A stretch of DNA of 64,000 nucleotides from Bacilli bacterium (GCA_017398945.1 JAFQES010000027.1:771-64770); one strand, 5' to 3'; positions 2,547 through 64,000 are shown, counted from the stretch's first letter. A program made the numbers and translations. Notes: generated from the letters alone by a model not told the origin.

Positions 2547-2562
2547 GGTGATAGTCATTGTG
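2538..2562. repeat. Element/host junction on the C-terminal side of the amidase gene (att-like)
   Basis: The plus strand reads tcgccgcct (2538-2546, one copy of a 9-nt direct repeat) followed by ggtgatagtcattgtg (2547-2562). The latter is inverted relative to 13851-13866. Confidence 0.7.
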
Positions 2563-4466: not shown

Positions 4467-5085
4467 ACATCATACCTACATAATCCATTACAACTTCTTT
4501 AATACCTAATTTTTCTGCATACAAAGATAGTTTAACAAGATCTTTATCCTTTCTTTTTATATATTCTTTAACACTATGTTTAATAAGTTCTAAATCCATT
4601 CTATTTTTAGATCTAATGATATCACATATACATCTTTCTATATCATATACTTTTACTTTATTACCCATAGGTGTTTCTATTTCAGTAAGACCCAGTTCAT
4701 AAATATCATTATCAACATAAAAGACATTATGCTTTCTTAAATGAACACTATTATAACTTCTTTTTACCGTTATATCATATACATTATTTGGAGCTTTTAT
4801 AGATAAACCATGAAAATATAAAGCTGTCATATGAGAATAGATTACATTCGGCATACTTAACCCAAAAACATAATAATTATCTTCAATTTTATTTGTATCA
4901 ATATAAATACCGGATGCTACTTTTTCTATAATCCCTTTTCCCTGCATAATCGAAAGATACATTCTATGTATATCAAACATATCAAGTTCTTTTGAAGTAA
5001 TATATCCATTATTGTTTTTCATAAGTTCTTCAATAATTTCAATATTACTTTTATCTTGAAACTCTTTTATAGTTAATTTTTCCAT
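4459..5085 (-). CDS. AbiEi-family antitoxin-like transcriptional regulator
   Basis: 208 aa. NGYITSKELDMFDIHRMYLSIMQGKGIIEKVASGIYI (wHTH), IYSHMTALYFHGLS and VYDIERCICDIIR match the AbiEi pattern. Confidence 0.7.
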   Translation of the reverse strand: MEKLTIKEFQDKSNIEIIEELMKNNNGYITSKELDMFDIHRMYLSIMQGKGIIEKVASGIYIDTNKIEDNYYVFGLSMPNVIYSHMTALYFHGLSIKAPNNVYDITVKRSYNSVHLRKHNVFYVDNDIYELGLTEIETPMGNKVKVYDIERCICDIIRSKNRMDLELIKHSVKEYIKRKDKDLVKLSLYAEKLGIKEVVMDYVGMMYE

Positions 5086-5114
5086 ATCATACCTCTTTTG
5101 ACTTTTCTACTGAA

Positions 5115-5142
5115 ATTATACCATAATCAGTAATTTTGTCAA
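5115..5142 (-). promoter_or_regulatory. Sigma-A type promoter of the AbiEi-like operon
   Basis: The minus strand reads TTGACA (5142-5137), a 16-nt spacer ending in TGG, then TATAAT (5120-5115), an extended -10. It lies about 30 nt upstream of the ATG at 5085. Confidence 0.6.
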
Positions 5143-5166
5143 GTGATTTAGTAGCATTTATTTATT

Positions 5167-5503
5167 CTCGACAGCTTGTCGGGATTTTTAACTTCGTGCC
5201 AACTTAGCACGAAGTAATATTAATATAAGTGTTGCAACTTCTGACCAAGTTGAACACAAGTTAAAACCTAACTTGTGGCCACGTCGTCCACAAGTAAATT
5301 TAACCTTGTAGCAATTTGCGACGAAGTTATAACTTCCGACCATGCTGGTCGGAGGTTGACTTCGTATCTAATCGGTATGAAGTTAATTAGCTTCTGCACA
5401 AAGTGTGCTGAAGTACTTTTATTTTTAACTTCTACACAGAGTGTGTCGAAGTTAAACTTCCCGACAGACTGTCGCGAAGTTAAATTTGTGATATATACAA
5501 GTT
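5167..5503 (+). repeat. Tandem array of about 11 imperfect hairpins with a conserved stem base (ACTTC...GAAGT) and covarying upper stems. It may be a structured ncRNA.
   Basis: Units at 5167-5183, 5191-5215, 5237-5261 (weak), 5271-5295, 5302-5328, 5331-5357, 5359-5383, 5391-5413, 5427-5453, 5455-5481 and 5483-5503. Upper stems differ but stay complementary (GTGC/GCAC, TGTGG/CCACA, CGACC/GGTCG, TGCAC/GTGCT, TACACA/TGTGT, CCGACAG/CTGTCG). Confidence 0.6.
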
Positions 5504-5518
5504 TTAATTTTATGTACT

Positions 5519-5545
5519 ATTCTGTGCATATTGCACAGAATTTTT
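5519..5545 (+). terminator. Rho-independent terminator on the + strand, closing the hairpin array
   Basis: Perfect 10-bp stem attctgtgca / tgcacagaat with a 3-nt loop, followed by TTTT(T) on the + strand. No T-run follows it on the minus strand. Confidence 0.6.
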
Positions 5546-7118
5546 AAATCATGAATCTATAGAAAATTTCAATATTCTTATCTTTATCAATTTCAATTTT
5601 ATCAATTAATGTTTGTAAAAGTTCTCTAGTAGGTTTCTTTATATCAATTAATTTTCTTATTTTCTTTTCGTATTCTTCTAATTCTTTGGTTTTAATATTT
5701 TCTTTTTTAGTATTTTTATACTTTTCTAAATCCAACTGAGCTTTATTTAAAAGCCTTTCCGTTTCCTGAGATAATCTTTTATAAGTAACATCTGATATAT
5801 TACCTCTAAATTTATCTTCATATAACATATCTATTTTTGATATATATTCTTTTATCTTATTTTCTAAATATCTTATCTTTTCTTTATTATCTTCCTTTTT
5901 ACTATTTTTATCTGCTATTTCTTTTGATAATAACTTAGAATCAATCTGCTTAATATAATTTTTACAAGTTGTTCTTACTACTTCAAGTAATGCCTCTTCT
6001 AATTTATCATAAGGCATAAAATGTGGTTCACATAATCTTCTTCTTGGATCTCTTGCATATTTATTACAATTAATAGTCCAATAATCGTGATTCTTTCGGT
6101 AAGTAATAGTTAATGCATTTCCACATTCTTTACAAAATAGCAAATTTTCAAATAATCTTTTTTCTCTATTACTAACACTTACATTAGTTCTTTTAACATT
6201 ACCTTGTATTCTTTCAAAAGTTAATTTATCAACTAATGGTTCATGTGTTCCAGGAACTATGTCCCAATTACTTTTTGGAAGAGCTTTTTTCTTTTTAGAT
6301 TTATAATTTACTTTAGTCTGAGTACTTTGAACCATATCACCTGTATACATTCTATTTTTTAGTATCTTCTTAACTGATGATATAGTCCATTGTTCGTTAT
6401 ATCTCATTTTAGAATTAGGATTTTTTCGTTTTAAACTACTTGGTGTTTTAATTTTATTATCATTTAAATATGAAGTTATATCAGATAATCCAACACCATT
6501 AGCAGCCATTTCAAATATTTTTTTAACTACTGGCGCATATTCTGGGTCTGGTATTAAATGTCCTTTTTCTTCTGGGTCTTTCATATATCCATAACTTGGA
6601 TTACTTCCAATAAACTTTCCTTTCTTTCTTTTATCATTTAAAACACTTCTAATTTTAATAGAGTTTTGCCTACTATAATAATCATTACAAGCAATTATAA
6701 ATGTTGATGAATCATTACTTGCTTGATTAATTGCACTATCATAGTTTTCTTGTAATGATATAAATCTTATATTATTTTCTGGAAAAAAGTTTTCAATATA
6801 ATATCCTGTCATAACATGATCTCTACCTAATCTTGATAAATCTTTTACTATAACTAAATTTACCATTTTATTTTTTATATCTTCAATCATTTTAGTAAAT
6901 CCAGGTCTTTCAAAATTAGTACCAGAATATCCATCATCAACATATTCTCCAACAAATATAAATCCTTTTTCTTTTACAAAGTTCATTAATAAATTTCTTT
7001 GATTAGTAATACTTTCACTTTCCGATTCATAAGATTTTCCTTCATCTGCTTCAGATAATCTTATATATATGACCGCTCTATAAATATTATTTGGCATTTG
7101 CATTAAACCGTTATACAT
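5544..7118 (-). CDS. Large serine recombinase
   Basis: 524 aa. The N-terminal resolvase domain has AVIYIRLSEADE (catalytic Ser) and VIVKDLSRLGRD. There is a recombinase domain, a zinc ribbon (CKECGNAL...NCNKY...C) and a long C-terminal coiled coil. Confidence 0.9.
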   Translation of the reverse strand: MYNGLMQMPNNIYRAVIYIRLSEADEGKSYESESESITNQRNLLMNFVKEKGFIFVGEYVDDGYSGTNFERPGFTKMIEDIKNKMVNLVIVKDLSRLGRDHVMTGYYIENFFPENNIRFISLQENYDSAINQASNDSSTFIIACNDYYSRQNSIKIRSVLNDKRKKGKFIGSNPSYGYMKDPEEKGHLIPDPEYAPVVKKIFEMAANGVGLSDITSYLNDNKIKTPSSLKRKNPNSKMRYNEQWTISSVKKILKNRMYTGDMVQSTQTKVNYKSKKKKALPKSNWDIVPGTHEPLVDKLTFERIQGNVKRTNVSVSNREKRLFENLLFCKECGNALTITYRKNHDYWTINCNKYARDPRRRLCEPHFMPYDKLEEALLEVVRTTCKNYIKQIDSKLLSKEIADKNSKKEDNKEKIRYLENKIKEYISKIDMLYEDKFRGNISDVTYKRLSQETERLLNKAQLDLEKYKNTKKENIKTKELEEYEKKIRKLIDIKKPTRELLQTLIDKIEIDKDKNIEIFYRFMI

Positions 7119-7339: not shown

Positions 7340-7855
7340 TTATTCCTCCTCGTATATATCACTTAATAATTTTTTTAATTCTTCTTGTTCTTCAATAGTT
7401 GCTTCATTTTTAGGTATTAACTTACCATGCCAGTATTCATTACCATCTTCATCTTTATAATAAATACTATCTTCTTTTTTATTTAATTTATTATTATATT
7501 GTTTAAAGTTTAGTTTATAGCCTGTATTAAAATTATCTTTAATACTTTTTAATTTTAAATTTAAGACTTCTGATAATTTAATTATACGCTTAGAATTATT
7601 TGTACTCGTATTATCGTATTCAGTCTTAATATAACCAAAGGTGGCTAAATTACTTATACTTTTTGATATAGTTACCTGTGTTACATTATAAATATCACAA
7701 AAATATCTATTAGTAGCCCAACAATAACCATTTTTCTTACAAAGACTTATTATATGAATTAATAATAATCTTTCTAAAAATGTTAATCTATCATCTCTTA
7801 GTATGGATTTTAAAATAAATACATTTATGAATTCTTCTTTATCCATAATAATCAA
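7340..7855 (-). CDS. Winged-helix/HTH protein (phage or plasmid replication- or regulator-like)
   Basis: 171 aa. YCWATNRYFCDIYNVTQVTISKSISNLATFGYIK is a typical HTH segment. Confidence 0.5.
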   Translation of the reverse strand: MIIMDKEEFINVFILKSILRDDRLTFLERLLLIHIISLCKKNGYCWATNRYFCDIYNVTQVTISKSISNLATFGYIKTEYDNTSTNNSKRIIKLSEVLNLKLKSIKDNFNTGYKLNFKQYNNKLNKKEDSIYYKDEDGNEYWHGKLIPKNEATIEEQEELKKLLSDIYEEE

Positions 7856-13794: not shown

Positions 13795-13850
13795 AACTAT
13801 TTCCTCATTTCTTTCTATTTATTTTGGCTTTAATTGTTATACATTCGTTA

Positions 13851-13870
13851 CACAATGACTATCGCCACCT
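13851..13870. repeat. Element/host junction on the N-terminal side of the amidase gene (att-like)
   Basis: The plus strand reads cacaatgactatc (13851-13863), inverted relative to 2550-2562. It overlaps tcgccacct (13862-13870), the second copy of the 9-nt direct repeat. Confidence 0.7.
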
Positions 13871-14148
13871 CCCGCATTTATGTGATTAGAAATTAATAAT
13901 ACATCATTTCCACTACCATAAAAACTTTTTGCTTTATTAACCCTTTGTGAAGGTGTTAACGTCTCGTCAGTAGTTCTTGTCATACTAACATCCAATCCTA
14001 AAGCTTTTAATCGATCATAGATATAGTCACTTATCAACAAATTATATTCCTTTTCAACAATTCCATTTCCACTGGTTCCTGGATCATTTCCACCATGACC
14101 AGCATCAATTACTATTTTTTTAGGAGCTCTTTCATTCATGTTTATCAC
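13862..14148 (-). pseudogene. 5' segment of the split N-acetylmuramoyl-L-alanine amidase gene (first 95 aa of Amidase_3)
   Basis: Track ORF 13837..14148 reads MINMNERAPKKIVIDAGHGGNDPGTSGNG...LISNHINAGGG, then 8 element-derived codons (DSHCVTNV) and a stop. There is no signal peptide. Confidence 0.8.
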
Positions 14149-14225: not shown

Positions 14226-15164
14226 ATGCCAGCAATTTATACTCATAATGTGTTTGCTAAAAACGTATATAATAATTTAGATAAAAATATTCAAAAAAAG
14301 TTTGTGGATAAAATCAATATTTATGAAATTTTCTCCCAAAGCTTTGACTTCCTTTACTACTATAATTTTTTATCTTTAAAGCCAGGAAGAAAAATTAGAA
14401 AATTTGGAAGGTATTGTCACCGCAATAATACTCAAGATTATTTACTAAATATTATAAAATATATTAAAAAAAACAAATTATATAATAACACCGATGTCTT
14501 AGCATATTTATATGGTTCTATTAATCATTACACTTGTGATACCACTATGCATCCATATGTTAATTATCTTTGTTCAATCGCCAAAGATAAAGTAGGTATG
14601 CATACGAAATTAGAATTTGAAATAGATGCTTACTACTATGAAACAGTTAACAATAAACCTTTTTATAAATATGACATTACTAAAGATTTATTAAATAAAG
14701 TTAGATTTTCTCAAGAATTAAAAGACTGTTTAAATAACGCTTTTAAACAAACATATAACGTTGATAACTTAGGTAATATCTATGAAAAAAGTTATAACCA
14801 AAGTTCTACTATTTTTAATCTTGCTATGAATGATAAATACGGAATAAAAAAGTTTATATATAAAATATTAGATCTATTAACAGTTCACTTTAATATTAAA
14901 TGTTCTTATTGTTCCTTTTATATAAAAAACGTTGATAAGTCATTTTTAAACATTAATAACAAAGAATGGTATAATCCAAGCAACAAGAACATAAAATCTA
15001 ATTTATCATGGGATGAATTATTTGATACAGCCAAAGATAAAAGTGTTATGTTAATAACTTTATGCGATAAATATTTTAACAATAAAATATCATTAAAAAA
15101 ATTAAAAGCCCAAATTCCTAACATTTCCTATGTAAACGGCCTTGTTATCAAACAAAAAAATTAG
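14226..15164 (+). CDS. Hypothetical protein, possibly of the zinc-dependent phospholipase C-like family
   Basis: 312 aa. The N-terminal MPAIYTHNVFA and several His-rich segments resemble that family. This is weak recall only. Confidence 0.3.
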   Translation: MPAIYTHNVFAKNVYNNLDKNIQKKFVDKINIYEIFSQSFDFLYYYNFLSLKPGRKIRKFGRYCHRNNTQDYLLNIIKYIKKNKLYNNTDVLAYLYGSINHYTCDTTMHPYVNYLCSIAKDKVGMHTKLEFEIDAYYYETVNNKPFYKYDITKDLLNKVRFSQELKDCLNNAFKQTYNVDNLGNIYEKSYNQSSTIFNLAMNDKYGIKKFIYKILDLLTVHFNIKCSYCSFYIKNVDKSFLNINNKEWYNPSNKNIKSNLSWDELFDTAKDKSVMLITLCDKYFNNKISLKKLKAQIPNISYVNGLVIKQKN

Positions 15165-15186
15165 CTATTTTTTCTTAGCTAATTTT

Positions 15187-16320
15187 TTAATTTGTTTTCT
15201 TTGTTTCAAGTGCTACTGACAACACTTTTTCAACACCATTTCGATTAACCGTAACACTAATCGTATCTCCAACTGAATGACTATATAATACATATCTAAA
15301 ATATGCTAATGAACTAATCTCAGTATCATCGACTTTAATGATAACATCATCTTTTTGTAGACCGCCTTTTTCAGCATCGCTTCCTTTTTCGACATCAGTT
15401 ACTAAAACTCCGCTCGTAACATTTAAAGCACTTAAAATATTATAATATTCTCTTGAATAGTAAGCATCTGCAACATTAATCATATAGATTCCTAAATATG
15501 GTTGTGATATTTCTTCTCCATTAATTATCTTATTAGCGTAATCCAATGCGGTTTCAATTGGAATAGCAAATCCCATTCCTTCAACCCCATTACTTACTAA
15601 TTTTAATGAGGTAACTCCAATTACTTCACCATTAGCATTAGCTAATGGACCACCACTATTCCCAGAATTTATTGCCGCATCTGTTTGTAATACACTCATT
15701 ACCCAATCACTTGATGAGCTATTACTTGTTGATACTTCTACTAACCTATCTTTTCCAGAAACTATTCCTCTGGTTACTGTCCAAGAATAAGCATTATCAA
15801 GTGGAGCCCCAACCGCAAAAGCCGTATCTCCAATTCTTGCATCTTTACTACTTCCTAATTCCGCAACAGAAATTATTTCATCACTATCTACAGACAACAC
15901 CGCAATATCGGCATATTTATCGCTTCCAACAACGGTAACTTCTGTTTCCTTTTGGTTAGTAAATGTTACTAAGATTTGATTGCCATCTTCAATAACATGA
16001 TTATTCGTCATAATAAAAGCTTTATTTCCATCTTTTTTATAAACAAAACCTGTTCCAGAAGCTACCCCTTTACCATTTTTATAAGTCGATACCACTACAA
16101 CAGAATCATATACCTTTTCAACAGATTCAGCTAAACCGGTATCATTTATTGTTACATTTTTCTCTAATTTAGTAGTTTCTTTAATAAATACTGTTGGATA
16201 AAGCTTTAAAACTGCATAAAAAGCTCCTGCTCCTATAAAGAATGCTAATATAGCAATTACTATAGTATTTAATTTACTATTATCATTATTATTAGTTCTT
16301 TGATAATTATTATAATCCAT
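15187..16320 (-). CDS. htrA: HtrA/DegP-family serine protease with a PDZ domain
   Basis: 377 aa. N-terminal TM segment, GTGFVY...MTNNHVIE (His), DIAVL (Asp), GNSGGPL (Ser) and a C-terminal PDZ-like region. Confidence 0.9.
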   Translation of the reverse strand: MDYNNYQRTNNNDNSKLNTIVIAILAFFIGAGAFYAVLKLYPTVFIKETTKLEKNVTINDTGLAESVEKVYDSVVVVSTYKNGKGVASGTGFVYKKDGNKAFIMTNNHVIEDGNQILVTFTNQKETEVTVVGSDKYADIAVLSVDSDEIISVAELGSSKDARIGDTAFAVGAPLDNAYSWTVTRGIVSGKDRLVEVSTSNSSSSDWVMSVLQTDAAINSGNSGGPLANANGEVIGVTSLKLVSNGVEGMGFAIPIETALDYANKIINGEEISQPYLGIYMINVADAYYSREYYNILSALNVTSGVLVTDVEKGSDAEKGGLQKDDVIIKVDDTEISSLAYFRYVLYSHSVGDTISVTVNRNGVEKVLSVALETKKTN

Positions 16321-16322
16321 TT

Positions 16323-17261
16323 TTATAACCTCACTATATCTCTAAAATTTGGTGGGAATCCCATGATATCCATAATTTTTTCAATACTAATTACTTCTAA
16401 CTTACCACTTAAATAGTCAAGTTCATAAGATATCTCATTAATTAATAAGGTAAAATCATCTTGACTTAATAAACCTTTTAAAATAATAATTACTGAGAAT
16501 ATATCATTTTTTCCATAAACATATTCTCCATTTAATTTATCAATGCCTAATTGACTATGATATATCGTATCATCAATTTCTTTTTGAGTTCTATGTTCAT
16601 AACATAAATCTTCATGAGCACACAAATTACGGTAATTAGCTAAGATTGGAAGATAATCTATTAAATCATGCACTTGAATATTTAATATATCTGCTATTTC
16701 ACTTTGATCTGAACTTTTTAATATTGTATAGAGTTCACTTACGATTCCAAAAGATAGCACTTTAACCCCTACCCACAAAGGAACAAAGTTATAATTATTT
16801 ATATAATGTTCAGTGGCTGTATGTTGAAATCCATTAATTCTGATTTGTCTACTCATTTTCTTTAGCAAATCATTTATTTGTTTCTTTCTTTTACTATCCC
16901 TGTTATAAATAGCAGGATTTAAATAATCATTTTCAGTATACCCATGATTTTTACTAATAACATAAGCAATAATACTTTTTAAGTTATTTTCCACAATTAA
17001 AACATTCTTAAAGATAATATTTCTCAGCTGTCTATCAAAAGAAAACATCGCATATAATTCTCTAAACGTTGTTCCAGGCAAAAAAGTACGATCCGCTTGT
17101 GACTTCAAAAAAGGATGACGATATCCACTAATAAAGAAATAATTCTCCCTTAATAAAATATGCTTTGTAAGTAATTCATCTTCAATTATTAACCCTTTAT
17201 TCTTAAGTATTTGGACCTGTTCTTCAAGAGTTTTAAAACTTTTTGATTTCATATGCTCCAC
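16323..17261 (-). CDS. Abi_2 (AbiD/AbiF-like) abortive-infection family protein
   Basis: 312 aa. The N-terminus is FKTLEEQVQILKNKGLII, and a HEPN-type motif is LANYRNLCAHEDL. Confidence 0.75.
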   Translation of the reverse strand: MEHMKSKSFKTLEEQVQILKNKGLIIEDELLTKHILLRENYFFISGYRHPFLKSQADRTFLPGTTFRELYAMFSFDRQLRNIIFKNVLIVENNLKSIIAYVISKNHGYTENDYLNPAIYNRDSKRKKQINDLLKKMSRQIRINGFQHTATEHYINNYNFVPLWVGVKVLSFGIVSELYTILKSSDQSEIADILNIQVHDLIDYLPILANYRNLCAHEDLCYEHRTQKEIDDTIYHSQLGIDKLNGEYVYGKNDIFSVIIILKGLLSQDDFTLLINEISYELDYLSGKLEVISIEKIMDIMGFPPNFRDIVRL

Positions 17262-17352
17262 CTATTATATAATTATATCACAAAGTTCTTTTAAAGAATA
17301 CTTAAATAATATGATTTTAATGCAAAATAAATGTGAAAAAAATGTGAATTTT

Positions 17353-18003
17353 TTAAATATCTATATTAGTAATACTTTTAGCAATTGCTCCAGCAACTTG
17401 TTTTTGATATTCATCAGTTATAAGTTTAGCTCTTTCCGTAGCATTCGATAAAAAACCACACTCTATTAAAACACCTGGAACTGCTAGTCTTTGATACATA
17501 TAAGTAGCAGTCGGCATTCGCTTGCTTTCTCTATCTCCTTTTAAATTTTTATTTAAATAATCTTGAATATTTTTAGCGTATTCCATATTATCTTTTAAAG
17601 CAAATACTTGCGCACCACTATATTTTGAATCTGTTAAATAATTGAGATGAATAGAAACATAGAAATCCACCTCACTATTATTTATTAACTTAATTCGGTT
17701 ATCAAAATCACTTTTCTTTCTAGCATATGCTGATGGCGAACTTAAATCATAATCTCCTTCTCTAGTCATAACTACATTAGCCCCAAGATTAATTAAGGAT
17801 TCTTTTAAATATAAACTTATTTTTAAATTAATATCTTTTTCATAAATATCTTTATAAGTAGTTCCCGGATCTTTACCACCATGACCTGCATCAATCGCAA
17901 TAGTTTTTTCGTTTAAAGGTAGCTTAGCAGAAACCATATATTTTGAAGATATAAAAAAACATATAAAAAAACATATAAAAATAAACATAATATACTTTTT
18001 CAT
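17353..18003 (-). CDS. cwlD: N-acetylmuramoyl-L-alanine amidase CwlD (germination-specific type)
   Basis: 216 aa. N-terminal TM segment, IAIDAGHGGKDPG, VSIHLNY...SGAQVF. Confidence 0.8.
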   Translation of the reverse strand: MKKYIMFIFICFFICFFISSKYMVSAKLPLNEKTIAIDAGHGGKDPGTTYKDIYEKDINLKISLYLKESLINLGANVVMTREGDYDLSSPSAYARKKSDFDNRIKLINNSEVDFYVSIHLNYLTDSKYSGAQVFALKDNMEYAKNIQDYLNKNLKGDRESKRMPTATYMYQRLAVPGVLIECGFLSNATERAKLITDEYQKQVAGAIAKSITNIDI

Positions 18004-18038
18004 ATTAAAATATATGCATAATCAATATTTTTAAAATA

Positions 18039-18064
18039 AAAAAGAACTAATTTATTAGTTCAAA
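18039..18064 (-). terminator. Rho-independent terminator
   Basis: The minus strand reads GAACTAAT-aa-ATTAGTTC followed by TTTTTT, just downstream of the stop at 18073. Confidence 0.5.
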
Positions 18065-18072
18065 ATTAAATT

Positions 18073-18483
18073 CTATTTTTGAGAATTATTAACTCTTTTT
18101 TTAACACTTACGGCCAAATCAGGATTTGTTATGTATCCAAGCATTTGTTCCTTTGTTATTTCTTCAAATTTCCACATTCCGTATTTTACTACGTCTTTTG
18201 TTTTTTCATAATAACCAGTATGAAGTCTAAAACTTACTCCATTATTAATTTGATTTAAAATGATCTCATCAAAAGTCATAGAGGTAAAGCAAGAATCATC
18301 GGCCCATTTAATCAAATCCCGCTCTTCGTAGAAGAAAGGCCAGATTGGACTATAAGTAATAACATGGTTTGTTACATCAAAAACTCCAGGAACTCGACCA
18401 GATGGGTCACTTAATTTCATTTTCCCATATCGCATTCCTCGCTCAATACAATCAGGCTTTAAATTGCATCCACCCATTCTCAT
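18073..18483 (-). CDS. Hypothetical protein
   Basis: 136 aa. It has a 4-nt overlap with the upstream ORF. No recognisable motif. Confidence 0.4.
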   Translation of the reverse strand: MRMGGCNLKPDCIERGMRYGKMKLSDPSGRVPGVFDVTNHVITYSPIWPFFYEERDLIKWADDSCFTSMTFDEIILNQINNGVSFRLHTGYYEKTKDVVKYGMWKFEEITKEQMLGYITNPDLAVSVKKRVNNSQK

Positions 18484-18713
18484 AAATGGACTGCTTTCTT
18501 ACAATAATCATCTCTTAAACTTCTTAAAGAGCCTTCGTTATCAAAATCGTATTTAGCCAATTCCTCACTAGATATATATTCTAGAAAAAATCGTTCTGGA
18601 TCTATATCACCTTTTCGAAATTCCAATATTTTTTCAAAAATATCTTCTCCGTCTTTCAATTCCATCTGATTAAATCTAAAAAATTCATCATTATAAACTT
18701 TTGCCAGAACCAC
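18480..18713 (-). CDS. Hypothetical protein
   Basis: 77 aa, acidic. It lies directly downstream of the CHAP-domain gene. Confidence 0.35.
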   Translation of the reverse strand: MVLAKVYNDEFFRFNQMELKDGEDIFEKILEFRKGDIDPERFFLEYISSEELAKYDFDNEGSLRSLRDDYCKKAVHL

Positions 18714-18723
18714 ACCTTCAAAT

Positions 18724-19740
18724 TTAATTATAATTTCCTCTATTCTTTCTTTTCCTAAATTTAAATATCAAACATAAACCAATAAGAATTATAACCCCAG
18801 CACCAACAGTCAAAATAATTATTTTCTCATTACCTTTTTTTACTATTGTTTGTTCAACTTGATTACTACTTTTTTCTATTTCAGGTTGCTCTTCTATTTT
18901 TTCTTTTCTTGTTACTTTTACAACATATTCTTTCGTAGTCCCATCTTCTGCCGTTACTACTAACTTTAACTCATTTGAACCGACATTTAATTCATAATTT
19001 CCGATTCCTTTAATTGTTGCTTTTTTATGTTCTGTTGTTGCATTAATTGTTATTTGTTCAACTTCATTTTCAACTTCTAAAGCATATTCAAATACTTCTT
19101 TATCAAAAATAATTGTTCCTACACTAAGCTCAATATCACTCAAATTAGCATTGTTAGATTTCTTAACTTCCGCTTTCGTTTCTTCTTTTTTGGTTGTAGC
19201 AGGTGTGCTTGTTGAACTTGACGATGTTGGCTTTTTAGGTGCATTATCTAAATATATGTAACCAGTTATTTCATAATCACTAGGTGATATTGTATATTTA
19301 CAAGCAATTCTTTTAGCATTTGCTCTACAAACTTTATCAGTTTCTTCACTAACTCCATTAGCAATACAGTTGATATATTTTGGATCTTCCTCATCGATAC
19401 ATGGTCCAGTAGAATCCCAAACATACATAATATTTCCTTCTACCTTCTCTACATACCCAACATGTCCATAAGATGTCCAATTACCCCACACTACAATAGA
19501 ATTAGCTTCAGGAGTTGTTCCAACACTATAGCCATCATTACTTGCATCACTATACCACTCTTTAGCATTACCCCAACCAGGTAATGTAACTCCCGCTTTT
19601 TCACTTGCCATTTTCCATGCATACCACGTACAATTGGTCCCATAAGGTCCACTCGGTTTATATGGATTTGATGCTGCATAAACATTTTGAATCCCTATAA
19701 TAAGTATTAAAAACACAATAAAATATAAACTTTTTTTCAT
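18724..19740 (-). CDS. Secreted CHAP-domain peptidoglycan hydrolase with a beta-sandwich repeat and a C-terminal membrane anchor
   Basis: The probable start is MKKSLYFIVFLILI (signal peptide); the track ORF extends to 19779. CHAP motifs are NCTWYAWKMA and YGHVGYVEKV. The C-terminus has a TM segment plus KFRKRKNRG. Confidence 0.7.
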   Translation of the reverse strand: MKKSLYFIVFLILIIGIQNVYAASNPYKPSGPYGTNCTWYAWKMASEKAGVTLPGWGNAKEWYSDASNDGYSVGTTPEANSIVVWGNWTSYGHVGYVEKVEGNIMYVWDSTGPCIDEEDPKYINCIANGVSEETDKVCRANAKRIACKYTISPSDYEITGYIYLDNAPKKPTSSSSTSTPATTKKEETKAEVKKSNNANLSDIELSVGTIIFDKEVFEYALEVENEVEQITINATTEHKKATIKGIGNYELNVGSNELKLVVTAEDGTTKEYVVKVTRKEKIEEQPEIEKSSNQVEQTIVKKGNEKIIILTVGAGVIILIGLCLIFKFRKRKNRGNYN

Positions 19741-19938
19741 TATAACAATCACACTTCCCACATATTTGTTCAATAGCAATTTCTGCAGATATATAATTTA
19801 TCAAAGTGCTATTCTTTTCAACTTTACTTTTTTATAATTCTATAATCTTCAGTTGCTAATTTATTTATCCGTTATATTAATTATATCACTAATAAGACAA
19901 ATAACAAAATATAGTTATTTTAAATGCTAAAACAACTT

Positions 19939-46919: not shown

Positions 46920-46935
46920 TGTTTCACGTGGAACA
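46920..46935. promoter_or_regulatory. parS site 1
   Basis: TGTTTCACGTGGAACA. Its reverse complement TGTTCCACGTGAAACA fits the Firmicute parS consensus TGTTNCACGTGAAACA. It sits within a 24-bp palindrome ttaatg...cattaa. Confidence 0.8.
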
Positions 46936-47015
46936 TTAAAAAAAACAATATTTTTTATAAAAATCTAAAACAAATAAAGGTTTGTTACCTTTAAAACTAT
47001 GTTATCAAAAATATA

Positions 47016-47031
47016 TGTTTCACGTAAAACA
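47016..47031. promoter_or_regulatory. parS-like site 2 (one mismatch)
   Basis: TGTTTCACGTAAAACA, with central CACGTA instead of CACGTG. It sits within an AT-rich extended palindrome. Confidence 0.6.
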
Positions 47032-47080
47032 TATATATGCAAAGAATTTAAGTCTATCAGAACAAACAAATTATGATTAA

Positions 47081-47096
47081 TGTTTCACGTGGAACA
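47081..47096. promoter_or_regulatory. parS site 3
   Basis: TGTTTCACGTGGAACA, identical to site 1 over 24 bp. Confidence 0.8.
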
Positions 47097-47134
47097 TTAA
47101 TTTAAGTTTTTAAGTTAAACTGCACTAAACAAAG

Positions 47135-47143
47135 TTATCCACA
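47135..47143 (+). promoter_or_regulatory. Perfect DnaA box abutting parS site 4
   Basis: TTATCCACA. Its last five bases are part of the 28-bp palindrome around parS 4. Confidence 0.6.
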
Positions 47144-47144
47144 A

Positions 47145-47160
47145 TGTTTCACGTGAAACA
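47145..47160. promoter_or_regulatory. parS site 4 (perfect palindrome)
   Basis: TGTTTCACGTGAAACA, inside the 28-bp perfect palindrome ccacaatgtttcacgtgaaacattgtgg (47139-47166). Confidence 0.85.
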
Positions 47161-47265
47161 TTGTGGTGCACCAATAAATGATTAAATACAAAATTTAGAA
47201 AAACATCGAGTTAATTTTATTTTAAAATAATAGTTAATTGTATAAATATTATATACTTTTATGAA

Positions 47266-47281
47266 TGTTCCACGTGAAACA
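47266..47281. promoter_or_regulatory. parS site 5
   Basis: TGTTCCACGTGAAACA, within the 24-bp palindrome tgaatg...cattca. Confidence 0.8.
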
Positions 47282-47344
47282 TTCACAATTTTTATGTAAT
47301 AAAAAACTATCTAAGTTCATTCTTAAATAGTTTTTAAATTAATA

Positions 47345-49846
47345 CTAGTTCTGTTCTTCAGATGTTTCACGTGGAACATCATTATTGATTTCATTATAAT
47401 CTATTTCTGTAAGATTATCTTCAATCTCATCTTCTTTTTCTACTAAACTAATGGTAGTAACAAAGTGATCTTCTTTCAAATTAATTAATCTAACTCCTTG
47501 CGCAGTTCTTCCTAAAGTATTAATTTGCTCTAATTTCATACGCATTGCCATACCATTGTTGGTCATAATAACTAATTCTTTATTTTCTTCAACAACTTTT
47601 ACAGCAACTATTGAACCATTTTTCTCTGTTACACTTAAAGCTTTTACACCTTTGCTTCCACGGCTTGTTTCTCTAAAATCACTAACTCTTGATTGTTTTC
47701 CATACCCTTTGTTAGTAACTATTAAGATATTATCTTCATTTTTAACAATTTCACACGCCACACAAACATTTCCGTCCAAATTAATACCTTTAACGCCACT
47801 TGCAGTTCTTCCCATTGCTCTTAATTTATCTTCTGAGAACTTAACTAACTTACCTTCACTTGATCCAAGTAATACTAAATCATTACCAGAAGTCTTTTTA
47901 ACATCTAATAATTCATCACTATCTTTCATAGAAATAGCAATCTTTCCTGTTGCTCTAATATTGTTGAATTCTTCAATGTTAGTTTTCTTAACAACACCTT
48001 TTTTGGTTGCAAATAGCAAATACTTATGACTTTCAACTTTCGAAATGTTGATCATCGATTTAACATATTCGTCTTTTTCTATTTGAATCAAGTTTACTAT
48101 TGGTAAACCTTTCGCGGTTCTACTAAATTCTGGTATTTCATAGCCTTTTAAGCGATATACGCGACCTAAATTAGTAAATAATAAGACATAATCATGCGTT
48201 GTAATATTAATCATACTTTCCACAAAATCTTCTTCATTTATTGTCATACCTTTAATACCTACACCACCACGATTTTGCGTTTTATAAGTATCTGCAAGCA
48301 TTCTTTTAATATATCCTTTGTTAGTAAGTGTGATAACAACATTTTCATCAGGAATCAATGATTCATCTTCAATATAATCAATTGCCGTCATATCGATATC
48401 TGTTTTACGTTCATCAGCATATTTTGCTTTAATTTCTAGCATTTCAGACTTAATTATATTAAGAATTTTTTCTTCACTAGCTAAAATTTCTGTTAATTCA
48501 GCAACTAATTTAGTTAATTCAGCAATTTCATTTTCAACTGTTTCCTTAGCTAATCCAGTTAATCTTCTTAACTTCATTTCTAAAATAGCATTAGTTTGCG
48601 CCTCAGAAAGACCATATTTAGCCATTAATGCTTTACTTGCATCTTCATCTGTTTCAGATTCCTTAATAATACGAATTACTTCATCAATATGATCTAAAGC
48701 AATCTTTAAACCTTCTAAAATATGCAATCTAGCTTTATATTTAGCTAAATCAAACTCTGTACGACGATAAATTACTTGTTTTTGATGATCCACATACTTT
48801 TCGTAAATAGTTTTTAGATCTAAACATCTAGGACGACCATCTACTAACATCAAGAAATTTATTCCATAAGACATTTGAACTTGTGTATGTTTATATAAAT
48901 TATTTAATATAACGTTAGCATTTGCTTCTTTTTTTACATCTATTACAATTCTAACTCCACCTAAAGCAGATTCATCGGTTAAACCTGAAACTCCGTCGAT
49001 TACTTTATCTCTAATTAATTCAGCTATTTTAATAATTAAAGCCTTTTTATTAACTTGGTATGGTAATTCAGTAATAATAATTCTATTTTTTCCATGATTT
49101 TCTTCAATTTCTACTCTAGAACGAATCGTAATTGTTCCACGACCCGTTTCAAAAGCCTTTTTAATACCTGAATTTCCTAAAATTATACCACCACTTGGAA
49201 AATCTGGCCCCTTAATATAATTCATTAATTCCATAATACTTATATCAGGATTATCAATATAAGCAACACATCCATCGATAACTTCTCCTAAGTTATGTGG
49301 TGGAATGTTAGTAGCCATACCAACAGCAATACCCATATTTCCGTTAACTAAAATATTTGGAAATCTACTTGGTAGAATTGTTGGTTCTTTTCTTTGACCA
49401 TCGTAGTTATCAGTAAAATCTACAGTGTTTTTATTTAAGTCTCTTAATAACTCCATTGATATCTTAGCTAATTTAGCTTCGGTATAACGGGAAGCTGCAG
49501 CTCCATCACCATCAATATTACCAAAGTTTCCGTGTCCATCAACCAAAGTATGTCGATAAGTAAATGGTTGAGCCATTCTTACCATTGAATCATAAATAGC
49601 TGAATCTCCATGTGGATGGTAATGTCCCATTACAGCACCAACAGCGTTAGCACTTTTTTGATGTTTTTTATCAGGAGTCATTCCTTCTTCTAATAATGTA
49701 TATAATATTCTTCTATGAACTGGCTTTAAACCATCTCTTACATCAGGAATTGCTCTTGATACAATTACACTCATCGAATAATCTAGAAAAGAATCTTTCA
49801 TTTCTTTAACAAGATTAACGCTGACCATTTTATCATGTTCATTCAT
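47345..49846 (-). CDS. gyrA: DNA gyrase subunit A
   Basis: 833 aa. [20 protein letters not shown] and [11 protein letters not shown] (the catalytic Tyr region). Confidence 0.97.
47363..47378. promoter_or_regulatory. parS site 6, inside the last codons of gyrA
   Basis: TGTTTCACGTGGAACA. It encodes DVPRETS in the gyrA C-terminal tail. Confidence 0.75.
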
Positions 49847-63149: not shown

Positions 63150-64000
63150 TTTGATATATGTGAATCATACAGGGAGTGTAATTCAAATACCTATTGAAGA
63201 TATTATTCCAAATAGATTTCAACCACGTATAGCTTTTGATGAAAAAGCTTTACAAGACTTAGCAAATTCTATAAAGCAACATGGTATTATTCAACCCTTA
63301 GTTGTACGTAGATTAGGCGATAAGTATGAAATAATCGCAGGGGAAAGAAGATATAAAGCCTCACAGTTAGCTGGTCTTATCTCTGTTCCTGCAGTTTTAA
63401 CTGATATAGATGACCAAACTAGCGCCGAAGTAGCATTAGTCGAAAATGTTCAAAGAAAAGATTTAACTGCTATAGAAGAAGCAAGAAGTTATAAAAACAT
63501 TTTAGATAAAGGTAGTATGACTCAAGAAGAGTTAGCTAAAAAGATGGGAGTATCTCAATCTGCTATTGCTAATAAATTACGTCTATTAAATTTAGCTGAC
63601 GAAGTTCAGGATGCGTTATTAGAAGGTAAAATTTCAGAAAGACATGCAAGAAGCTTATTGATGGCTTCTAATCATAGAAGACAAGTAGAATTATTAAACA
63701 GAACAATAGAAGATCGTCTTACTGTTCGTCAATTAGACACTATTATTAAATCAGAAAGTGCTCAGTCTGCTGATGATATTTTGGAAGATGTTCCCCTAGT
63801 TAATATTGAGCAAGATTTAGAAGAATTGAAATCAAAAGCAACCGATATAAATCCGGTTAATCAAGATATAGTTTTACCAAATTTAGAGTCAATGGGTGAT
63901 AACGAAACTCAGGAATCCAATTCGAATGTAGAACAAAAGCCAAAGTTTTTTAACTTTCTGGATAATAGTCCTAAATCTTCAGAAGTAAATTCATCTCTTC
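63150..64000 (+). CDS. ParB/Spo0J/Noc-family protein (3' end beyond the window)
   Basis: Not in the track because it is open-ended. From the GTG at 63150 the translation reads VNHTGSVIQIPIEDIIPNRFQPRIAFDEKALQDLANSIKQHGIIQPLVVR...IIAGERRYKAS...VENVQRKDL...MTQEELAKKMGVSQSAIANKLRLL. No stop occurs before position 64000. No ParA gene lies between rsmG and this gene. Confidence 0.85.

Follow-up and report, generated by a model that had tools for sequence, protein, structure and literature searches.

What is the function of a run of eleven different palindromes placed directly behind a recombinase gene? The question is raised by a 64,000-nucleotide stretch of a Bacilli bacterium genome (GCA_017398945.1, JAFQES010000027.1:771-64770), which is called the window as a whole. 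In the window, 11 consecutive imperfect palindromes stand back to back and fill the non-coding gap at 5162-5543. A large serine recombinase gene has its stop codon at one edge of the gap, and the promoter of an AbiEi-like operon lies at the other; both are on the minus strand and in the same integrative island. The feature is real, conserved, and specific. From sequence comparison, we give about even weight, for and against, to the reading that it is an orphan, polyvalent array of ParB-loading (parS-like) sites engaged by ParB proteins in trans, which would make it a multiplexed centromere mimic. ParB binding to the array, and every consequence of such binding, is what we infer from the observations that follow.

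Nine of the 11 units are exactly 27 nt long and read AACTTC-N15-GAAGTT (Table 1), in agreement with the shared stem base and the count of about 11 hairpins reported in the first-pass annotation of the window. The two end units (5162-5188 and 5517-5543) belong to this palindrome class in degenerate form; for the latter, the orthologue in two related loci (L148 and L200) is AACTTCTGTGCAAATTGCACAGAAG, and the window copy shows the compensatory change of AACTTC/GAAGTT to AATTC/GAATT. The unit consensus is A-ACTT-N5-CAA-N-TTG-N5-AAGT-T, symmetric through its centre. The exact unit pattern gave two matches in the 64-kb window, both in the array, against 0.05 expected, and the pattern search found no unit elsewhere in the window. 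Tandem Repeats Finder reported no array at 5162-5543 because the units are too different from one another.

For a wider comparison, a fixed-spacing pattern derived from the unit consensus, AACTTNNNNCCAANTTGGNNNNAAGTT, was searched in a viral collection; an earlier pattern of two adjacent loose units had been discarded as too permissive, its matches being mostly due to chance. The fixed-spacing pattern matched 43 viral contigs and seven loci of the window's own family, against a rough chance expectation of 1-2 matches that rests on the pattern length and an assumed collection size. A ParB homologue was encoded in 39 of the 43 contigs, within the contig DNA examined. In most of these 39, the site lay inside an open reading frame (ORF) with ParB_N and HTH_ParB domains, at one codon position (..HQGxRxDL/TSxQVGxKL) just before the helix-turn-helix. 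When ParB loci were collected by protein homology instead, all 60 with a matching anchor motif carried the palindrome at that position, with 10-13 of 13 Watson-Crick pairs. The same-position palindrome was also present in the ParB of the Cohnella herbarum plasmid NZ_CP051681 (parA-parB, with an annotated segregation ATPase adjoining) and in the ParB of the Enterococcus faecalis plasmid LR962508. The ParB carriers comprise Firmicutes conjugative elements, phages or phage-plasmids, and plasmids. In the conjugative-element-like loci L229, L222, and L208, it is the sole long perfect palindrome in 8-15 kb. A full-text literature search for the core sequences returned unrelated papers only, none of them with the palindrome sequence.

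Sites of this class share a constant outer AACTT/AAGTT and a constant central CAA-N-TTG, and the five positions between them on each arm form a code. We compared the 7-nt code (positions 6-12) with six residues of the recognition helix. The probability of the same helix 6-mer given the same code was 24/37, and that of the same code given the same helix was 24/30; for control segments just upstream and downstream, at a similar distance, the values were 6/37 and 6/38, and 6/37 and 6/91. Examples of code and helix pairs were CATCC with SRNQVH, CGTCC with SRNQVQ, CCCGA with SGRQVQ, CTACG with SKDT[VI]R, and GTTCC with SKNQIF. Identical pairs reappeared on different ParB backbones, and GTTCC was found with SKNQIF on the Cohnella plasmid as well. 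The palindrome thus appears to be the cognate parS-like site of this ParB subfamily, usually located as one copy within parB, and positions 6-10 would set its specificity. Not every element follows the usual arrangement: the ParB of L209 has no internal site, and two same-code copies lie elsewhere in the element, upstream of a serine recombinase gene, while L228 and L240 have two ParB-type sites each, with differing codes.

The units of the window were then set against the ParB-embedded sites. Of the nine regular units, seven have a ParB-embedded site at a distance of 4 mismatches or fewer over the inner 17 nt, and the lineage of that site differs from unit to unit; just 2.5% of random palindromes are as near to one. 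Code TGTCC, carried by low-GC ParB elements (30-32% GC; L234, L235, L317, L318), is present in the family arrays too. Like parS-type sites, the units are short stretches of dyad-symmetric double-stranded DNA (27 bp, symmetric through the centre), and site and protein specificity covary, as judged from computational evidence. A parS-type site also has a cognate parB/parA in the same element, which is missing here: no homologue of the L229 ParB subfamily was found in the island or in the 80 related loci described below (tblastn, E at most 1e-5), and the sole tblastn match in the window was the chromosomal ParB at about 63184-63699. The array sites are called orphan because the island encodes no cognate ParB. 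The gene order is comparable: L229 has recombinase, parA, and parB with its site, and the island has the recombinase followed by sites.

The host appears to have its own, separate sites. With up to 2 mismatches, TGTTTCACGTGGAACA occurs six times at 46920-47378 in one intergenic region, adjoining an 833-aa ORF (47345-49846) that may be gyrA, judged by its size. TGTTTCACGTGGAACA matches the B. subtilis-type parS consensus, and this cluster is probably the host's own parS, or centromere; its sequence differs from the array units.

If the array is a set of ParB-loading sites, ParB dimers from co-resident elements would load on whichever unit fits their specificity. The excised island could then be partitioned by the ParABS system of the other element, and/or the other element could be destabilised through centromere incompatibility or ParB titration. 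Alternatively, loaded ParB clamps might make the adjacent promoters of the recombinase and cargo responsive to whether a helper is there; since ParB-like clamps can regulate at long range, an array beside the recombinase could serve as a helper sensor.

Relatives of the locus were collected by a recombinase scan with one genome per species, which gave 80 loci, all from metagenome-assembled genomes of uncultured gut Bacilli, "Tenericutes", or "Clostridium sp. CAG". Loci with a recombinase 93-98% identical to that of the window carried 0-10 units past the stop codon, the first one 6-20 nt after the stop, and those at 59-60% identity carried 2-5 units. At 65-75% identity, exactly one palindrome was present in 20 of the 33 scorable loci, followed by a conserved promoter-like block, and this block was found behind the first palindrome in relatives of 65-98% identity. 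At 54-56%, there was no palindrome except one borderline match; in two loci of this group (L183 and L185), which occupy the amidase gene used by the window's element too, nothing separates the recombinase gene from the att site. The cargo flanking the array varies among loci (Fic, reverse transcriptase, AAA_14, and others), and recombinases 93-98% identical have quite different genes past the array; in L148, the array is followed by a convergent 327-aa ORF and then Fic. By contrast, the recombinase and an HTH_36 gene stay conserved beside the single palindrome kept at the same spot in relatives of about 70% identity. The palindromes are therefore part of the recombinase core and do not belong to the AbiEi or HEPN genes. 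The link to the AbiEi-like, HEPN, and RloC genes suggested at first pass was not supported. All 16 arrays with at least four units, among them the ParB-less arrays of L233 and L238 described below, had a different code in every unit of the array. Close relatives draw their arrays from about 14 unit types in collinear order and differ by whole units, and in orthologous units the loops vary, the stems are kept, and compensatory changes are present.

Several observations weigh against orphan ParB-loading sites. The array units are 81-86% paired, compared with 95% in the ParB-embedded sites. The outer AACTT/AAGTT, which is best conserved in the non-coding arrays, lies outside the reach of a typical 16-bp parS. 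Most of the ParB-bearing elements found have a far higher GC content (mean 48%) than the island hosts (26%). Site and helix are about 20 codons apart, and their coupling might partly reflect linkage; equidistant control segments couple far less, which argues against linkage as the source. In the phage contig L225, the linker of parB (4544-5650) contains an in-frame tandem row of 4-5 palindromes, each 27 nt long and differing in code, and these fit a requirement for structure only as well as they fit polyvalency. Additionally, in orthologous arrays the conservation of the units exceeds that of the spacers by no more than a slight margin, so some units may be decaying. As to the L225 neighbourhood, a tape-measure gene lies upstream and an actin-like ALP gene downstream.

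The last points bring in the explanation that the units are fossil or selfish palindromes, now functionless: the remnant of a lost parB palindrome tract such as that of L225, or a duplicated 3' hairpin of the recombinase gene. The imperfection of the units, their conservation close to that of the spacers, and the loss of whole units among close relatives all suit such decay, and the 27-nt unit equals nine codons, several units being translated into ParB-linker-like peptides. However, the palindromes keep the same position in recombinase clades of 59-98% identity (arrays in two clades, a single copy in the third), stems are preserved while loops vary, orthologous units show compensatory changes, and no flanking parB remnant was detected by tblastn. 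We regard a fossil origin without present function as unlikely, though worth some weight.

The predicted folding of the array, described in the first-pass annotation as a series of hairpins, is strong. The array had a minimum free energy of -144.7 kcal/mol on the plus strand (z = -11.8) and -139.5 kcal/mol on the minus strand (z = -11.9), and no shuffled sequence folded as well on either strand. Among 93 distinct family units, a set pre-selected for palindromy and therefore with an inflated paired percentage, 85.9% of the cells were paired versus 72.2% after shuffling. Double-sided changes numbered 169 versus 66, and the covariation score was 0.38 versus 0.14 (at most 0.125 in slid controls). 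By formal pair counts, the covariation was located at pairs 6-10. The compensatory upper stems described earlier are thus confirmed, but such covariation is expected equally from a DNA dyad bound by a dimer and from a hairpin.

These results permit a structured multi-hairpin RNA, be it the 3' untranslated region of the recombinase mRNA, a minus-strand leader of the cargo, or a separate plus-strand RNA, acting as a stabiliser, sponge, or antitoxin. Besides the very strong folding on both strands, no terminator stands behind the recombinase on its own strand, which makes read-through into the array likely. A plus-strand hairpin with a T-run, claimed before and recovered by the terminator scan at 5519-5541, also speaks for an RNA. 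Against an RNA stand the symmetry of the unit and its strand preference. The two-fold symmetry runs through the unit centre, with A/T at central positions 12 and 16 in 87 and 86 of 94 units, respectively, and at positions 13 and 15 in 70 and 68; a hairpin has no need for symmetry that reaches the centre, where it is superfluous. The palindromes inside parB ORFs, which covary with the recognition helix, show the same: all 39 distinct ParB-embedded sites have A:T at pair 13:15, which a hairpin cannot form, and these sites are 95% Watson-Crick paired, with 8 G:T versus 13 A:C and hence no wobble preference. Among 94 distinct family units, 73 G:T pairs fall on the recombinase strand versus 38 on the window plus strand, about twice as many, as an RNA of the recombinase strand would predict; the window array alone has the opposite bias, a plus-strand excess of 6-7 to 1. 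The plus-strand excess pointed out in the first pass therefore held for the window and not for the family, and the G:T versus A:C counts carry no consistent strand signal. Taken together, the Watson-Crick pairing of the embedded sites, the A:T pair at 13:15, and the inconsistent strand bias disfavour a need for the plus strand or for a hairpin, and the sites are therefore read as double-stranded DNA.

The transcription signals agree only in part with those reported before. On the minus strand, the consensus scan found a perfect promoter for the AbiEi-like gene (5142-5115); on the plus strand, it found a promoter-like TTGACT-18-CATAAT (5098-5127) and did not list the weak plus-strand promoter TTGTCA-17-TATTTA proposed earlier. 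A second plus-strand terminator-like site (5166-5184, followed by TTTTT) stands at the start of the array, so a transcript from 5098-5127 would reach it ahead of the array. As a side observation, this promoter-like and this terminator-like site could yield an RNA of about 50 nt, divergent from and overlapping the minus-strand AbiEi-like promoter. A scan of the array against Rfam 15 (E up to 10) gave chance-level matches only, with a best E of at least 1.2, far below the gathering score, and the earlier statement that no named RNA family is recognised holds. The plus-strand RNA of about 375 nt did not fare as well, given the inconsistent strand bias, the terminator-like hairpin ahead of the array, and the dyad through the unit centres. 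With no tie to any single cargo gene and no partner gene of the ToxN/AbiQ type, a structured RNA is in our judgment improbable.

The antitoxin variant of the RNA explanation had been suggested as a type III-like RNA. The array resembles type III toxin-antitoxin systems of the ToxI type in its short tandem structured units beside abortive-infection-type genes. ToxI-type loci, however, have near-identical direct repeats, followed on the same strand by a terminator and the gene of a ToxN-type endoribonuclease; the array shows none of this. The units all differ, no plus-strand gene follows the array, and the neighbours are the AbiEi_4-like gene and the serine recombinase gene; the type III candidate was rejected. 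Among the other roles offered in the first pass, a protein sponge or sites of the element come closest, as double-stranded DNA for ParB-family proteins and not as RNA or single-stranded DNA.

Hairpins of single-stranded DNA for transfer or replication would be sso-like priming sites or origin-of-transfer (oriT) mimics for the relaxase of a helper. Hairpin-recognising enzymes select for stems whose base and loop are constant while the middle is free to covary, and the island is non-autonomous and probably helper-dependent. Yet the island has no relaxase or Rep gene, the strand asymmetry is inconsistent, the symmetry covers positions unable to pair in a hairpin, and the code and the ParB helix vary together; we consider single-stranded hairpins very improbable. 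An integron attC array was rejected as well: the ends AACTTC..GAAGTT are opposite to RYYYAAC..GTTRRRY, no cassettes lie between the units, and the only recombinase is a serine recombinase.

The palindromes could also be sites for the HTH_36 protein of the island itself, for example, the origin or a regulatory region of the excised circle. No DNA-binding gene except that of HTH_36 is conserved in cis alongside the recombinase and the palindromes, and HTH_36/DUF6017 genes occur near parB in the conjugative-element-like loci too. A single protein, however, is not expected to read 11 different codes, and in ParB-bearing loci the code follows the ParB helix. Furthermore, the phage locus L225 has no tblastn match to the HTH_36 protein of L229 or of the island in the contig DNA examined. 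Sites for the island's own HTH_36 protein are, accordingly, quite unlikely in our view.

Dispersed repeats were considered next. The array resembles repetitive extragenic palindromes (REPs) and bacterial interspersed mosaic elements (BIMEs) in its cluster of imperfect palindromes, conserved stem base, covarying stems, and location in 3' intergenic DNA. REPs are dispersed over many loci of one genome together with a REP-associated tyrosine transposase (RAYT), whereas the array units are found only behind the recombinase. Dispersal of the units as REPs or miniature inverted-repeat transposable elements (MITEs) had been named in the first pass as evidence against a special function, and it was not found: there were no copies elsewhere in the 64-kb window, and relaxed units outside the array position were at background in about 1 Mb flanking the 80 related loci (18, versus 35 per 2.6 Mb shuffled). 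The REP/BIME and MITE candidates were rejected on these grounds, and a CRISPR reading was rejected on its defining features.

Among known systems, the array of putative ParB-loading sites is nearest to centromeres and their mimics. The sopC centromere of the F plasmid consists of 12 tandem repeats, each with a 16-bp palindrome. As in sopC and in the parS cluster of the host, short palindromes stand in tandem in non-coding DNA at intervals of tens of bases. In an ordinary centromere, a single sequence is repeated (no more than 2 bases distinguish the six host sites), whereas every code in the array is different, and no cognate ParB is encoded near it. KorB of RK2 is a ParB-like CTP clamp that is loaded at specific sites and regulates distant promoters. 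BisD of the conjugative element ICEclc is likewise a ParB-like CTP clamp with site-specific loading that regulates distant promoters (PMC12409273). In a similar manner, palindromic loading sites beside promoters could couple the island to the state of a helper; unlike in BisD and KorB, a different element would have to supply the clamp, and the regulatory role is putative.

The integrative mobilizable element SGI1 carries two parS mimics; as these bind the ParB of IncC plasmids, the island is stabilised and its helper is expelled (PMC10954446). Like SGI1, the element of the window is an integrative, non-conjugative island without a ParB of its own that carries copies of the ParB-site type of another element. 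In SGI1, the two copies match the parS of one helper and binding is experimental, whereas the array has 11 sites (up to about 14 in relatives), all codes are different, and binding is presumed. Unlike SGI1, the array belongs to a Gram-positive gut lineage and stands directly behind a serine recombinase gene.

A further, tentative step, which we consider possible but doubtful, is that the defence islands of uncultured gut Bacilli keep a "library" of centromere mimics, each unit tuned to one ParB specificity class. An island of this kind would ride on any incoming ParABS-bearing element or evict it by incompatibility or ParB titration, as a polyvalent DNA-only device in the conflict among mobile elements (plasmid, conjugative element, phage-plasmid). 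If the units are ParB-loading sites, centromere mimicry, so far shown for the Gammaproteobacterial SGI1 only, would extend to Gram-positive gut bacteria and would be multiplexed, with up to about 14 specificities in a row. It would also place a DNA-only function, either against plasmids and phage-plasmids or for hitch-hiking, amid protein-based defence genes. The parB genes with their own site about 20 codons from the helix would supply dozens of site/helix pairs, a readable ParB-DNA code. Even without binding, a 27-bp palindrome kept perfect within a coding gene over many ParB lineages needs explaining.

Table 1. Features of the palindrome array and of the island that carries it (positions in the window).
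Feature	Position	Strand	Remarks
Degenerate palindromic unit, core CGACAGCTTGTCG at 5169-5181	5162..5188	no strand	L128 orthologue TCCCGACAATCTGTCGGGA; also plus-strand terminator-like
27-bp unit AACTTCGTGCCAACTTAGCACGAAGTA, inner code CGTGC	5190..5216	no strand	2 mismatches from the L226/L290 ParB-embedded site
27-bp unit AACTTCTGACCAAGTTGAACACAAGTT, weak palindrome (9/12)	5236..5262	no strand	Closest ParB site L231, 3 mismatches
27-bp unit AACTTGTGGCCACGTCGTCCACAAGTA	5270..5296	no strand	
27-bp unit AACCTTGTAGCAATTTGCGACGAAGTT	5302..5328	no strand	
27-bp unit AACTTCCGACCATGCTGGTCGGAGGTT	5331..5357	no strand	L122 orthologue with compensatory change CCAACC/GGTTGG
27-bp unit GACTTCGTATCTAATCGGTATGAAGTT	5358..5384	no strand	
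27-bp unit AGCTTCTGCACAAAGTGTGCTGAAGTA	5389..5415	no strand	
27-bp unit AACTTCTACACAGAGTGTGTCGAAGTT	5427..5453	no strand	Closest ParB site L275 (code CGACA), 4 mismatches
27-bp unit AACTTCCCGACAGACTGTCGCGAAGTT	5455..5481	no strand	Closest ParB site L276 (code CCCGA), 4 mismatches
Conserved promoter-like block GTACATAAAAT..AAACTTGTATATATC on the recombinase strand	5483..5518	-	Read from the sequence; putative function
First palindrome past the recombinase stop codon, AATTC..GAATT variant	5517..5543	no strand	Also plus-strand terminator-like site
Large serine recombinase (Resolvase + Recombinase + Zn_ribbon_recom + DUF4368)	5544..7118	-	Palindromes travel with this gene
HTH_36 protein gene	7340..7855	-	Upstream of recombinase; conserved in 51/80 related loci
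Terminal inverted repeat CACAATGACTATC	2550..2562	-	Junction with C-terminal amidase half
Other terminal inverted repeat	13851..13863	+	Junction with N-terminal amidase fragment

The block at 5483-5518 (minus strand), present at the equivalent position in L129-L160 and L171 too, has the form GTACATAAAA..(G)ATAAACTACTTATA; it follows the first palindrome past the recombinase stop and resembles a -35/-10 pair directed at the downstream cargo. The 90-aa ORF on the plus strand (5275-5547) was rejected as a gene, as the first-pass annotation had also judged in stating that it simply reads through the hairpins: the unit spacing is not in multiples of three, and the unit content varies among close relatives. 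This ORF renders several units as ParB-linker-like peptides (ITSDHAGRRL, LTSYLIGMKL, and LTSTQSVSKL) because the palindrome consensus, at 27 nt or nine codons, encodes them directly. Non-coding arrays of at least nine palindromes of this class were also seen in two higher-GC contigs, L233 (5300-6700) and L238 (5300-6600), with no ParB in the contig DNA examined; in L233, whose genes were annotated, the array adjoins two large serine recombinase genes and a UvrD-like helicase gene.

The element that carries the array is 11.3 kb long and splits an Amidase_3 + LysM gene, of which the N-terminal fragment lies at 13837-14148 and the C-terminal part at 1598-2488; perfect 13-bp inverted repeats stand at both ends. 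The reconstructed attP-like site is the palindrome CACAATGACTATC-N10-GATAGTCATTGTG, which is unrelated to the array units, and the units were rejected as att or res sites of the recombinase on this basis. The minus-strand operon beside the array comprises a weak AbiEi_4 match, DUF7695, Bro-N, and HEPN_Swt1, and the remaining cargo includes an AAA_13 ATPase, an Mrr_cat nuclease, and a TdeIII-type restriction enzyme with a D12 methylase. The element amounts to a small integrative island of defence genes. It contains no relaxase or Rep gene, is non-autonomous, and probably depends on helper elements. A DNA search of the phage database gave no match, and the plasmid database gave only weak matches to the recombinase and AbiEi genes.

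The window has about 26% GC, and a GC-skew switch near 56 kb suggests the region of the chromosomal origin; gyrA and dnaA are presumed near it from ORF sizes only. Just outside the island, the region at 14226-19779 contains zinc phospholipase C-like, HtrA-type protease, Abi_2, second Amidase_3, and CHAP/cadherin-like genes, and it may be another variable region.

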